DNA of 64,000 bases from the NCBI RefSeq assembly GCF_000181795.1, contig NW_003526941.1, positions 186,001 through 250,000 of the forward strand. The letters are read 5' to 3'. The stretch comes from Trichinella spiralis (taxonomy: Eukaryota). A program made the position numbers and the translations under genes. Each line of letters begins with the position of its first letter. Position 1 is the stretch's first letter. The notes below the pieces were generated by a model. It worked only from the letters and a program-made list of their open reading frames with translations, searched no databases and was not told where the DNA came from. Below are positions 16,201 to 22,200 of the stretch, in pieces.

Positions 16201-19200
16201 TTTTTACACTCACTTCTGGTTTTAGATTCATCCCACCAGATGGGACAATTGATTTCAGGATTGGAAGATTCGATCCATTCAAGCACGCCTTCAGTTTGAG
16301 CCAGTCGTTCGGCAAGAGAAGCAAATGCCGGCAACGTGACCAACTGAGCAAGCTTTTCTTTTTGTTCTTTGCTCAATTTCAACTGACCACTGGTCGAAAA
16401 AGGTGCTGTGTCAGCAGTTTTCAAAGAATCAGACCTCATCAAAAGGTGACTAAATTCATCATCGAACGAACAATCGCTAAATATTTGAAAAAAATATTAT
16501 TAATAAATGGATTTAAAGAAAAAAACAAAAATACACCACCTTTCAGACATCCCCTTCAAATATATGCGTGATAACAGCAAAGCAAATCCCAGTCGATCGT
16601 GATGCAACAACCCCAACGAAACTCGTCTGTAGACAGTCTAAAAATTAGCATTTTTACACGTCACAATTTTTGAAATGAACTACATTTCGATAAATTACTT
16701 TGAATATGTTTTTCGTTATTACATTCAACCTTTGACTGTAATCAGAGATACCATCCAATATGGACTTCTTGTTCAGAACATGCATGAAAATGTCCATGAA
16801 AAATTGAAGAGAATACTGATACAGAAAATGCATCTGTGTAGACAAAAAAAATAACCATTAAGTTCAAATATACTAGTGCCGATAAAAGTGAATAACAAAA
16901 GTATCCAATAGTTAGTTGAAAATAACCTGATTCAAGTGATCTAATGTGAAATACAACGACGCGCAGTAGGATGAAAACGGTGTGTAGAGTTGTGAAGTTT
17001 TTTCAATCTCCATCATAACAGTTTCCGTTTCACTGGCTTTGCGAGAAACTTCAGCCGCTTCTTTCTTCAACGTTTCCAGCGTAGAAATAATGCTATGAAT
17101 GAAAAGAAAAAAATCAGCTCACAAAATTATGCAAATCTATCATGTATGAAACATAAACCGTACCTGTCATCATCCAAAATCCGACCTTTCACGTCGTTCA
17201 GCGCTTGAAGCAGTGATGTTTCCAGATGTCTCAAACGAAGTGCAAATTCACCTATTTCGTTCGATGCAAACAAGAAAAATGAAATGAACAAATTTTCAAT
17301 TGAATTCAAAGCATTATTACCTTGCAATTTCATCAAATCGGATCTTTTCGAGTCAATGTCGGGACGTTCAGCTTTCAATATATGATTCAAACACTGACTC
17401 TGCAAACTGCTACGAGTGACTGTAAAATTAATTACAGTGACACGGGAACAAATATCAGGCGTCAATTGAATCTGAATCAAAAAAAAAGAACCAAAACAAC
17501 AATTAATATAACAAGATATTAGCATTGAAAAAGTTTTTAAAAGTACGGTAGGATCGCGGGTGGATAAAAATATTTGAAAACTCGGTGACAAATCAATATC
17601 TTGATCACCGACTGTGATAAGAACACGACCACCGGCTCGTTTCACTTCGTAATTCAAAACGGGATTCAAAATTGGATCGTAACATTCGACATCTTGAACC
17701 AAAAGTGAATTTCCAAAACGCAATGCACTTTCCAAATTTTTTCGAAAAGCATCATCCATAAAGCTAGAATATTCTATACATTAAATTTAAATAAAAGAAA
17801 AGGCAAAATCGACAAACCTGGTCCTGATTATTTTTCGTTCGCCGTATTCTTGCATCAAAAATTCAATCGCTTGACCAGAAGGATCAATTATCAAAGGATA
17901 TCTTGTAAATCGTTTCAACATGATTGCATTTTCCACACAAAGCTCATCCACTGGAAGAGCATGCTGCTGCCAACGCAACCGTTCGTCCGGATTTGCCAAA
18001 TATTCGACAAGTGAAATATCCGGTCGAAATTGTATACCAGCTTCATCCAAATGACGCGACCAATTCATGAACAACGACAACCGAATCTGCTGATCAAAAT
18101 AACCTATAATAAAATAAAAATACACAACATAAATGTAGGGAAGAAGAAATTTCTCTATCTTTTTTTTGTTTTAAATTTAATTTCAAAATCGAACCGGCAT
18201 ATGAAATGAATGCAGCTGACAAAAGTACATCGCCAACAATTGTTTCCATTTGTGTTTTAAATGTGTCGCTACTCTGTTCCCAACGTTGCCGTTCACTGCC
18301 CAAATTCTGCAGTAGCTGAATGCTGCGTTCAACCTGGATGAGAAAGTTCACAAGTTGTATAAAAATTTATTTATTTATTTATTATTTCCTTGTTTACCTT
18401 CGTTTGTACTGCTATTAAATCCGCTTTTATCGATTGAACTTCGCTGATCAGCAGTGCGTATTCATCCTTGTATGAAGCGATGCTTTTTTCCAACTGATTA
18501 ATAACCGCATTCACGTCTTCAACTTTTCGTTTATTCACTTCGGCGTCGTTTTCAAGCTTTTTCAATTCATTGCGCAATGGTTCCACTTTGTGCAACATTT
18601 CGGCATAGTTAATCTGAAAATTATCCAAATGCAATTATACCTGTCGAAATAATGGAATTGCAGAAATTGACAAACCTGTGCCGTTGCCCATTTCACCATT
18701 GGACCGCAGGCCTGACTAGCACGATTCACTTTTTCGTAATTGTACTCTGGATTATCCAAATATTTTGTCTTCATCTTCTGTCGTATATCCTCACTAGATG
18801 TGGAAAAGAAAAACCAATCAGTACAAACAGTTATTTTTCTGTTTGTTACAAAGAAGCAAGTCGAGAACAAATTTTCAAAATTGCCCGTGCTATCCATGTG
18901 ACAATTGCAAAATCACTGTCGTAACCAACGACAAAGTACAACTGTTAACAATATTTGAATTAAGAAAATCATGCATTAAAATTTTTCTTCTCTCTGTTTT
19001 GATTTTTCCAATCACTGACAAAAAACAACAGAATATAGAAGAATGTGATCAGCAACAACAATTCGAGCAGTGTAAAGCAGATGAATAATAACGGCATTAT
19101 CATCATCATCACGAACACTGACAAAAAACTTACGTTATTCTTTCAGTATCAAAATTCAAAATTTGTGAAACAAAATCATCGCGTAGTAAATAGCCGCGAA

Positions 19201-22200
19201 TACTTTTCCAATCGAGCGTCGAAGAGCCGGTAAAAAGAAAAATCACCGCTTCAAGAGCCAGCTTCACCGTAGCAGGTGGACTGGACAAATACCGTATTTC
19301 GCCCAAATGCTGCCGTCGTATGTTTCTTACGGCTACATTGATTGTAAAAAAAAGCAACACAGTAAATACTACCAAATTCCAAACTGAATACCATATCAAC
19401 CACCATGCATGCATGCATGCATGCGAAATACAAGCAGCAATCAAGCAAACAAATATCAATGATGATGATGATGATGATGATGATATTATACATATATTTG
19501 TGAAAACAAAAAAAAAATTGTTCGACAAAATAACTTCAGCACAAAACAACTTACGTAACAGAATCAGTATCGAAGTTCACGATTCGACTAATGAAGTCAT
19601 CTTTTACAATAACAGCACGCATCAATTTCCAATCTGTACAATTTTCACCGAGCAACAAACATATGGATTCCAATGCAAGTTTTACAAGACCTGGTGGATT
19701 GGCCATTGACCGTACTTCAACCAGATGTTGCTTCTTGATAGATTTTACAGCTAAACACAACAACATGCGCACAATACACGACAAAAAACCAAATACGCAA
19801 AGCAAAAGAAAAAGAAACTAATTCACAATTAGAAACTCAAATAATAAACATGCTATATGTGATATATACAATATTAACAACAACAACAATAATAATAAGA
19901 ATGATAGTGAATAAAATAATGATACGTACCATTCTGTGCGTCAATTACAGCAGGTTCTACTTGAGCTAGCTGTTTCATCACGTCTGATTTTTTCGCTGCC
20001 ACTTCGGCCAACTGTTGTTGCAAATTGCTTTGTATTTGTTCACTCATGTGCTTTTGGTTTTCCGCTTCTTGTCTATTGCTGAGCTTAAAACAGAAATATG
20101 AAAAATACAAAATTCACAAACGTATGCAAATCACACATGAGCTTGAAAAATTTACCATTTGCTTCAGCTTTTCGTTGGCCAGAGCGTTTTTCTCTTCCAA
20201 TTCTTTAGATTTCAAACTGAGTGACTTTTGCAATTCGGTCACTTGTTGCTCAGTTTCTACAATTTTACTCAAACCAATGTTCAAATGACGTTGCTGATCT
20301 ACCAGATCTTTTCGTTTTTCGTGAAACAGTTTAACCTGAACAATTTTTAAATAAAAACAAAAAAGAAAAACCCCTGGTAAAAGCCTCACAAAAGTATACA
20401 TACATAATGATTGATGAAATCCAAAAAATGTCTAGGTGTAATGAAGACTGTTCGATGATCACGCTTAGTCAGCTGTAGAACAACCTGATGCAATGTTTCG
20501 TGCACATAAACGTAAGCATTGACAACAGCTTCGCGATAAGTTGGTGGTCGAGAGACCAAATCACACGCATAAGGAAAATAATCCGGTGGCTTGTAGGCCG
20601 TGTTGTCCATATCCAAATTCGAAGTAAGCTCCCGGCCAACTTGGAAAAGGGCGCTTTTGGACCAATCGCCGAACCAGTTGACAACACAACGATTGAACAG
20701 TGCAGGCGAAGTCGACACGCGATCTTTGAGCCCTTCTGAAGATGGATTCATGGTGAAGACGACGTGCAAGTTGCGCATCACCTATTGGTGGGATATTTTT
20801 TTTCAAACTTTATCAATTCCAATAAATTAATTGGTAATCATTTACTTGTTGCGTAAACCAACGATACAATTCTTCAGACGAATCCAAAATTAAACCTTCA
20901 TGCTGTGATGCCTCTTTAATCTGAGACATCAGAGTGGTATATTCATCACCTTCAAACAAGCCAGGCACTTCACCGTTGGCCAATAGTGTGTTGATTCGTT
21001 CCAAAAAACTTGAATCCAACAAATTCGACTCATCCATAATAAAGCAAAGCTTTTCGCCCTGATAAATGAATATATATGGATAATGAACAAAATTAACATC
21101 ACAAAGAAAAATATCACCTTGCAACCAACACGACGCAACACCAATCTCAAATCATCGTCGAAATTTTCTGCTGAATATTTATTGTGAATCTAAATAAATT
21201 TAAAAAACAAAACAAGAATAACCATTGAACATTCAGCATAAGAGTAGTAGAATAAAGAAAATTAAATAAACTACTTTGACTTGGAAAACGGATAATCCAT
21301 TCATCCAAGCGACAAAACGTGACAATGTCGCACGTCCACTACCGCTGACACCAATTAACAATAAATGGCCCTTTAACAATGAAAAATGTTCAAGTGAAAA
21401 TAACCAAATAAATACATATATAAACGTTCAATTTACCTGGGGTTGTCGAAAAATTCTGTCAATACGTAAAACATGGTCCAAAACTTCATCAAAAAATACA
21501 AGTCGTACGTCCAACTCTTCTTCATAAAATACCTTAAAAATACCAAAAAATAAAAACAGAAATAAAATTAATCTTGTCCAATTGTTTTCATCTTACTCGA
21601 AGACGAGCTTGAAGAAAGTTTCGCAATTCTTCACGTTCAACTGGCAAATAATCTTTTGTAAGCCAACAACTGTACAACAACGGACGACGCAGAACAACAC
21701 TGACGTCGACGTTTGGAAAATGCTTGGCTGCAATCAAATCAATCTGTTCGTCTGTCCATCGTCGTTCATCTTCTTCCGCCAAACTGGAACAACAACAGCA
21801 GTCAAAAAAATACAGTAAAATAAAAAACAAATTTTTTTTTCAAGCTATCACTTAACCGATCTTGGAAAAGCCTCAACGCTTCATGTGCCCAAAGTTTCAC
21901 CAAATTTTCCACGTTCAGCGTTTCCAGTGGACGTATTGCTTCACATATGCCGCGCACCCAACGGGTGAGTTCGCGGGGACTGTAAACATAATGCGGTTGA
22001 AGCTCTGGCGTGAATTTGTCCTGAACATTTTCGTTGCGAAAAGCATGGAATAATTTTACAAGCAAAGATAATTGAGAAAAACAACGACAAATCCACCTGA
22101 GACAGCAAGTAGAATTCAACCATAGCAGCTGTCAGTGGTTCGGCAAATGATCGAAGACTGGGAATCATGCGAAGCATTGCTCGATTGAAGGTGCCGTAGA

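Follow-up and report, generated by a model that had tools for sequence, protein, structure and literature searches.

Frame-exclusive tandem exons for the microtubule-binding tip of cytoplasmic dynein-1 in Trichinella spiralis

The duplicated exon and its frame

The window, the whole 64,000-nucleotide stretch of Trichinella spiralis DNA analysed here, carries on its minus strand a cytoplasmic dynein-1 heavy chain (DHC1) gene, recovered as 67-76 colinear tblastn segments against full-length DHC1 proteins, with the tail, AAA1-6 and the stalk colinear within this one gene. The P-loops of AAA1-AAA3 are canonical, and that of AAA4 contains R instead of K, the usual residue there. In the protein matches across the gene, the segment encoding most of the microtubule-binding domain (MTBD) is the only one matched twice in full, by the tandem exons A and B. 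The features are arranged as follows:

13252..34424, minus strand: DHC1 gene, its extent being that of the protein matches rather than a mapped start and stop
19930..20083, minus strand: shared upstream exon, end of stalk CC1, with a phase-1 donor (sequence; RNA joints 19930>19750 and 19930>19332)
19751..19929, minus strand: intron before A, 179 nt, with a weak A acceptor (sequence)
19555..19750, minus strand: exon A, 196 nt, canonical MTBD H1-H4, the major spliced form (RNA joints)
19333..19554, minus strand: A-B intron, 222 nt, with a very weak B acceptor (sequence)
19455..19493, minus strand: (CAU)n arm, with the (UGA)n arm beyond B as its predicted partner (inverted repeat, pair probabilities)
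19404..19424, minus strand: (TGCA)n run in which four TGCATG overlap (motif count)
19134..19332, minus strand: exon B, 199 nt, divergent MTBD H1-H4 with one additional residue (RNA entry, constraint, fold)
18794..19133, minus strand: intron after B, 340 nt (sense RNA in run X19; unbroken in a contig of run X2)
19130..19132, minus strand: TAA, encountered in frame immediately after B by transcripts left unspliced at its donor (sequence)
19081..19121, minus strand: (UGA)n arm, 12-52 nt behind the B donor (duplex prediction)
18676..18793, minus strand: shared downstream exon, MTBD H5-H6 and the start of CC2, with a phase-2 acceptor (sequence and RNA)

Both exons lie, exactly to the base, where the initial annotation had placed them, with AG and GTAAGT boundaries, entry in phase 1 and exit in phase 2. 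Its rule that exactly one of the two must be used is borne out by translation of the four possible products: the transcripts joining the flanking exons through A or through B are stop-free, and those containing both exons or neither have stops in all three frames. The surrounding introns of 179, 222 and 340 nt are indeed unusually long against a median of 74 nt, taken over the 66 refined introns of the gene with some long gaps left unrefined. Among 64 acceptors of the gene, that of A stands at the 5th percentile and only one scores lower than that of B, while the B donor is strong (69th percentile).

The assignment of A and B to the MTBD is likewise sound, since both peptides best match dynein-1 residues 3296-3359 (human numbering). 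The best matches are DYNC1H1, with E values of 1e-25 for A and 2e-16 for B, and axonemal and dynein-2 chains match only at 8e-6 or weaker. Neither exon encodes the axonemal flap between H2 and H3, and the fold agrees with dynein-1. Residue counting places mouse E3378 and R3382 in the shared downstream exon, confirming that H6 lies there.

Divergence and constraint of exon B

Exons A and B are identical at 111 of 196 aligned nucleotides and at 30 of 64 amino acids (47%). The purifying selection earlier proposed for B is supported by its lack of a stop, the retained contact charges and the dynein fold. When A was mutated at random to the same nucleotide distance, 2716 of 3000 variants acquired a stop and none scored above 35 bits against the profile, compared with 93 bits for B. 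The dN/dS between A and B lies between 0.25 (NG86) and 0.42 (LWL85), a value that averages old and recent history at near-saturated dS (ML dS 16; YN00 gave none). Residues are retained in B at 15 of the 19 highly conserved columns and at 21 of the 45 variable columns (p=0.027); B departs at the other 4 conserved columns, where A departs at 0. B evolves approximately three times faster than A relative to five of six outgroups (p 0.002-0.04; p 0.21 for the sixth).

Specifically, B retains human E3306, R3308, K3336, R3339 and R3344 and carries R in place of K3300 and K3301, with further changes comprising V3305G, S3309Y and a longer H2 (human numbering). Mouse K3298/K3299 and the H1 glutamate are tubulin contacts according to the consulted parts of PMC4987762, PMC6629372 and PMC4298687. 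AF2 places the helices of A at residues 6-13, 20-32, 40-47 and 52-57 and predicts B with four helices like A, with a TM of 0.83 to the microtubule-bound mouse MTBD. B may have an altered microtubule affinity, as hypothesised in the initial annotation, but the known contact charges are kept and the net charge is nearly equal (+1 in A, +2 in B). Because B keeps the H1/H3 charges and alters mostly their surroundings, its tip would be expected to adjust how fast it binds and releases or how it couples to the stalk, and not to reverse the electrostatics.

Protein searches at 115-2000 aa and 35-114 aa yielded no close orthologue of B, the best match being 61%, and none of ten open reading frames of the window was present in the collection searched. 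The full-length search returned seven proteins, none from a close relative, with P0169 about 53% identical; no sister-species B was found in these searches.

Use of the two exons in RNA

Four of the 24 sequencing runs listed for the stretch were aligned, and three of these are RNA-like: X19 is labelled RNA, and X1 and X2 are taken as RNA because their contigs skip introns. The fourth, X15, is DNA from which the window itself may derive, and it does not count as independent. The word shares of runs X3-X5 (0.53-0.54) and X6-X10 (0.37-0.40) carry no weight in what follows. RNA depth is low (273 reads placed), joints of X19 are listed only from 3 reads up, and contigs drop minor joints. Exon A is joined in X19 by 16 reads at 19930>19750 and 18 reads at 19555>18793, and it is also spliced in contigs of X1 and X2. 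Exon B is entered through 19930>19332 by 3 reads with 3 distinct starts, representing 3 of 19 entries (Wilson interval 6-38%), and the same joint occurs in a contig of X2, a second study, at a depth of 26.7 versus 148.3 for A. B is therefore entered in about one transcript in six.

The exit of B behaves differently. The joint 19134>18793 is not among the joints listed for the three RNA-like runs, where a true count near 3 would miss the 3-read threshold 34-42% of the time; at the same low depth, joints from A to B and from the upstream directly to the downstream exon are also absent from those listed. In X19 the depth of 1.85 at the 3' end of B continues at 1.77-2.26 over the first 210 nt of the next intron; the handful of molecules with B thus continue past its donor. 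The X2 contig opens with the joint into B and runs unbroken from the B acceptor through the intron into the downstream exon. Depth is zero at 19365-19475 of the A-B intron in both X19 and X2, which makes the retention specific to the B exit. Thus, of the earlier proposal that one gene yields two dyneins, the use of both ends of A and of the B acceptor stands, whereas the spliced exit of B is missing among the joints listed and B-entering RNA runs into an immediate stop.

A predicted RNA stem spans exon B. No other (CAU)n run occurs on the sense strand of the gene, and no other (UGA)n run on the minus strand of the window; the two arms form an inverted repeat of 31 nt (84%) with pair probabilities of about 0.5-0.67. 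Their best 35x35 duplex reaches -30.6 kcal/mol, a strength equalled by 1 of 76 same-geometry controls and by 0 of the 27 with GC <0.35, for a pair of microsatellite arms noticed after the fact and predicted from a single genome. No competing upstream stem rises above background (best 35x35 duplex -22.7 versus a control mean of -24.1 kcal/mol), and whole-intron duplex folding is uninformative. The adjacent (TGCA)n run holds 4 of the 13 TGCATG of the gene, which we take to be an RBFOX-type motif.

The explanation favoured here, with a probability of roughly 0.6, is that A and B are frame-exclusive tandem H1-H4 exons, A being the main form and B being entered with retention of the next intron, and that B probably gives a second dynein where the last splice is completed. 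The geometry, the frame rule, the use of A, the use of the B acceptor, read-through of the B donor and the constraint on B are observed, and a B-form dynein protein is likely. In the mechanism proposed, the (CAU)n/(UGA)n stem is predicted to loop out B and to make A the default, aided by the very weak B acceptor. Transcripts with both exons or neither would be eliminated through frameshift and decay, and the second dynein, with its divergent tip, would be made solely in cells or stages that complete the splice from B to the downstream exon.

The same RNA could instead reflect a non-productive switch, in which entry into B leads to intron retention and a stop, and about one-sixth of the dynein RNA is detained in the nucleus or decayed, tuning dose; the protein-like appearance of B would then be a relic of an earlier coding role. 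This reading, which we consider rather unlikely, draws on the observation that all B-entering RNA in two studies reads through the donor, on the specificity of the retention for the B exit (the A-B intron lacking depth in X19 and X2), on the TAA immediately behind B and on the excess of changes in B. However, it depends on about 3 molecules in X19, a number at which the B exit joint would so often be missed, and on contigs that drop minor joints, and an exon acting purely as a poison exon would have no need of an open frame, a strong donor or preserved tubulin contacts at such divergence. The fast rate and the four changes at conserved columns also suit a copy that was once functional and has lately been freed from selection, with leaky acceptor use as noise, and so do the second-weakest acceptor of the gene and the lack of a spliced exit among the joints listed. 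B nevertheless contains no stop or frameshift, its acceptor use of about 15% in two studies is high for noise, and its changes at contact positions are conservative, leaving such a release improbable.

It is scarcely credible that B serves as a last exon, so that the heavy chain would stop short after H4 and lack H5-H6, CC2 and AAA5-6. X19 depth does fall to 0.19 at 18810-18920, and the stop lies directly behind B, but none of nine variants of an AATAAA-type signal is found in the intron behind B, no pile of read ends is listed, and the X2 contig spans the entire intron. Furthermore, given the established structure, an MTBD cut in half and carried on a stalk that is unpaired would not be expected to fold.

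The exon pair in other animals and in known splicing systems

The premise that such a pair is rare does not hold: duplication or exchange of this exon also occurs in insects, in a teleost and in further animals, and a mutually exclusive DHC1 exon is published for Schistosoma mansoni (PMC3228551). RefSeq isoforms exchange the same MTBD segment in Aphidius gifuensis (X1, X3, X4 and X5 versus X2 and X6) and in Ctenocephalides felis (X1-X6 versus X7-X10). The teleost Coryphaenoides rupestris carries a tandem second copy of the exon (KAG7247558.1, P0001), to which the exon reading frames P0009, P0018 and P0151-P0163 are related; this copy is conserved, one member occurring on 255 contigs. Among metagenome loci, 9 of 79 (7 distinct) have a tandem MTBD exon with the same splice phases, a count that includes L060, where the end of the contig truncates the first copy. 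AG, 196/199 nt and GT recur in L008, L028, L044, L066, L069, L070 and the second copy of L060. L002 and L077 were rejected as two-copy loci, their overlaps lying inside one continuous exon. With both flanking exons present, 3 of 39 loci have two copies, many of the single-copy loci appearing to be one related group; the pair is therefore widespread rather than universal.

In the 27-row tree (LG+G4, 64 columns, three long rows left out), p-AU is 0.57 for an A+B clade, 0.47 for B with the fish copy, 0.07 for B with the insect copies and 0.035 for all second copies together. The placement of B differs by tree: B joins a long branch in one and P0002/P0003 (91/92) in the 27-row tree. The second fish copy falls in a separate tree group without B and is much nearer than B to the canonical copy.

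Motor diversity is usually credited to adaptors and accessory chains, because only one isoform is described for the heavy chain of mammals. For dynein-1, that description is given in the consulted part of PMC3824068. A natural MTBD pair on an otherwise identical motor offers a direct test of which H1-H4 residues outside the contacts determine affinity, run length and coupling to the stalk. No paper on the function of such exons was found in the literature searched. The value of the present pair is lowered because the swap itself is already known from RefSeq insect annotations and mentioned for Schistosoma, at a perhaps different position, and because the B protein is only likely. More tentatively, and at well below even odds, the DHC1 tip may be subject to a little-noticed splicing switch across animals that has gone furthest here, with a 47%-identical second tip under its own selection; the stem would hold its RNA back with the intron retained, and a particular stage or cell type would release it to give a dynein-1 with another stepping or track preference.

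The two-exon cluster of Drosophila srp provides a parallel for the predicted stem, as pairing between its middle and downstream introns favours the first exon, according to the consulted part of Yue et al. 2016 (PMC4691838). A downstream stem looping out the second exon is common to both, in the window as a prediction, whereas srp has a second, upstream stem for which the window has no counterpart above background. The srp stems are conserved across species, in contrast to the microsatellite arms of the window, whose stem is predicted from one genome.

The Schistosoma pair, reported by Pillmann et al. 2011 and cited by Kollmar 2016 (PMC5100056), resembles that of the window in comprising two homologous internal exons of the dynein-1 motor domain with split codons at both ends, as far as the consulted text of PMC3228551 describes them. 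Its exons differ in being of identical length and strongly homologous, and their position, given there only in Figure 3, may differ from that of the MTBD exon; function is not discussed in that text. Dynein is not mentioned in two supplements of PMC3228551, in the main text of PMC7954323, PMC4494069 and PMC3923563, or in the supplements searched, including part of those of PMC5100056 and PMC4494069. By the cluster definition of PMC3228551, the window's exons have similar length and homology, equal phases and a frame that accommodates one exon.

The insect isoforms exchange the same 64-65 residue segment with the same ends and with one copy one residue longer. The insect annotations give a full-length protein for either form, whereas B of the window has no spliced exit among the joints listed. 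The insect copies differ at 13-16 positions; in the window 34 of 64 differ, and the insertion falls at another site. Identity within six other pairs is 37-52 of 64, as against 30 of 64 here, and the window's pair, being the most diverged among the pairs compared, provides the best contrast between two tips.

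The duplicated exon pair

The minus strand of the window carries a single cytoplasmic dynein-1 heavy-chain gene, whose 67–76 colinear protein-matched segments run from 34424 to 13252 and within which one protein segment is matched twice in full. The two tandem exons responsible cover the MTBD (microtubule-binding domain) helices H1–H4 and lie between a shared upstream exon (20083–19930) and a shared downstream exon (18793–18676):

19750–19555, minus strand: exon A, 196 nt, AG and GTAAGT borders
19332–19134, minus strand: exon B, 199 nt, AG and GTAAGT borders

Re-examination of the sequence reproduces the borders and splice phases of the initial annotation, and its view that exactly one exon is needed is upheld: the upstream–A–downstream and upstream–B–downstream chains are open, whereas including both exons, or leaving out both, introduces stops in all frames. 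For each peptide the best match is to residues 3296–3359 of human dynein-1, in line with the proposed MTBD segment. The three surrounding introns, described there as longer than usual, measure 179, 222 and 340 nt against a gene median of 74 nt (66 refined introns). The exon pair is real.

Elsewhere in the gene, the AAA4 P-loop GVSGSGRAT (21373–21272, minus) carries R where the usual form has K; the P-loops of AAA1–3 are canonical. Outside it, a 2465-nt block occurs at 44010–46464 and 47004–49467 in copies 98.4% identical, separated by a 10-N gap (46465–46474). This block, probably duplicated by assembly, includes exons for Ig and thrombospondin-like domains, part of an UNC5-like gene whose ZU5/UPA exon lies at 41452–42531. 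ORFs at 6073–10581, 11536–12785 (minus) and 37027–39628 (plus) resemble what we take to be an alpha-galactosidase, an HSD17B10-type short-chain dehydrogenase and an LRR-Ig membrane protein.

Transcripts and splice signals around exon B

RNA/DNA read comparison covers 4 of 24 candidate runs. Stranded raw reads of run X19 (18% of the run, 273 reads placed, joints reported from 3 reads up) connect the upstream exon to A 16 times (19930>19750), A to the downstream exon 18 times (19555>18793) and the upstream exon to B 3 times (19930>19332); among these placed reads, no joint from B to the downstream exon (19134>18793), from A to B or from upstream to downstream exon reaches 3 reads. Both A joints also occur in X1 and X2 contigs, from two further studies, and X2 contains the upstream-to-B joint as well, at depth 26.7 versus 148.3 for A. 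By 3 of 19 X19 reads (6–38%) and these X2 depths, the B acceptor takes a share of ~15% in two studies.

At the B donor the X19 sense-strand reads show no fall in depth, which speaks against the initial reading of two dyneins: depth is 1.85 before the donor and 1.77 and 2.26 past it, inside the intron. It is 0.19 in the last 110 nt of that intron and 0 in bins inside the A–B intron and the intron upstream of A. The X2 contig from the upstream-to-B joint is continuous to 18764, and an X1 contig of depth 12.5 spans both inner introns. Reading through the B donor leads to a TAA directly after B. Numbers are small here: about three molecules are involved, a true count near 3 would be hidden 34–42% of the time, and contig assembly is known to lose minor joints. 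The proposal that one gene yields two dyneins stands for use of the B acceptor, but not for a completed B transcript at the 3-read threshold.

Scored against the gene's own splice sites, the A and B acceptors rank near the bottom of 64 (5th and 2nd percentiles), and the B donor is strong (69th). Of the 13 TGCATG hexamers in the gene, presumably linked to RBFOX proteins, 4 come from a (TGCA)n run between A and B. The sole (CAU)n run on the sense strand of the gene sits in the A–B intron and the sole (UGA)n run lies 12–52 nt past the B donor; together they flank B as a 31-nt pair, 84% complementary, with predicted pair probabilities of ~0.5–0.67 in the whole-region fold. The best local duplex (−30.6 kcal/mol) is equalled by 1 of 76 control segments of matching geometry from elsewhere in the gene and by 0 of 27 at low GC. 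This predicted stem, a post hoc observation, is similar to the stem described downstream in Drosophila srp (PMC4691838), but its arms are microsatellites and no upstream stem rises above background. A 14-nt word behind the B donor (19129–19116, minus) recurs 103 nt deeper in the intron (19026–19013), where it could also pair with the flank of the (CAU)n arm; 10 of its nucleotides reappear just before the A acceptor (19789–19780, minus).

Constraint on exon B and its interpretation

Between A and B, 111 of 196 nt are identical. Among 3000 random mutants of A made to this nucleotide distance, 2716 contain a stop and none exceeds 35 bits against a profile of 147 homologous segments, on which B reaches 93 and A 117 bits. 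Pairwise dN/dS is 0.25–0.42, with dS near saturation, and B retains 15 of 19 highly conserved versus 21 of 45 variable columns (p = 0.027), in line with the suggested purifying selection on B. AlphaFold2 on each exon alone yields four helices (pLDDT 86 for A, 84 for B), and the B model aligns with dynein-1 MTBDs at TM 0.81–0.83. B is a constrained, folded alternative front half of the MTBD.

Specifically, B retains the H1 glutamate, the H1 arginine and the H3 charges, and replaces two H1 lysines with arginines; these residue types are named as tubulin contacts in PMC4987762, PMC6629372 and PMC4298687 (mouse numbering is human minus two, with E3289 and the KK pair as anchors). Changes of greater extent are V3305G and S3309Y, both within H1, and an aromatic H2 two residues longer; both cysteines are absent, and net charge is +2, versus +1 for A.

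The most likely working explanation, at a probability of roughly 0.6, is a mutually exclusive switch in which A would be the default exon and B would be completed only in certain cells or stages. Read-through into the TAA would also suit B as a non-productive switch, a less probable reading. Private changes in B are ~3 times those in A against 5 of 6 outgroups, as recent decay of B might produce; decay is the least probable of the three.

Paired exons in other animals and known systems

No orthologue of B appears among the protein and ORF sequences searched. Two tandem copies of the MTBD segment occur in a teleost protein (P0001, Coryphaenoides rupestris), the second recurring in further exon ORFs. 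RefSeq isoforms of two insects swap exactly the A/B segment: 2 of 6 in Aphidius gifuensis, and in Ctenocephalides felis 4 of the 9 listed at full length. Two copies with the same borders are present in 9 of 79 metagenome-contig loci (7 distinct), and in 3 of the 39 having both flanking exons. The window pair is, by sequence, the most diverged among the pairs compared, since 30 of 64 residues are identical versus 37–52 of 64 in the metagenome loci. Trees on 64 columns are compatible with one old duplication or several; grouping every second copy in one clade is rejected by a narrow margin (p-AU 0.035), and A and B as sisters are compatible (p-AU 0.57).

Five of the 7 distinct two-copy loci (L008, L028/L032, L044, L069, L070) have a GCATG just past the second copy, no more than 20 nt from its donor. 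The motif is absent there from L060, L066 and the window, and may be a shared splicing-factor site. The divergent exon-sized MTBD ORFs P0044, P0002, P0003 and P0035 resemble B, with SPP ahead of the proline pair and, in P0044, the extra residue after H2 seen in B; judged from sequence, they may represent diverged second copies from other animals. In the insect clusters P0166 and P0168, the dynein isoforms differ additionally in short optional exons around residues 790 and 2205. P0004 and P0106 are not dyneins but consist of five repeats similar to the dynein MTBD.

A search of largely non-subscription literature, including PMC7954323, PMC4494069, PMC3923563 and PMC3583065, yielded no work on the function of alternative MTBD exons. 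Pillmann et al. 2011 (PMC3228551) describe a mutually exclusive exon pair in Schistosoma mansoni DHC1 with codons split at both ends, and Kollmar 2016 (PMC5100056) notes motor-domain splice forms, citing it. The Schistosoma pair shares with the window pair its gene and the split codons, and may be the same exon. Annotations thus already contain this kind of pair, and one publication mentions it; the example in the window has a second copy that is unusually far diverged, together with signs of control by retention.
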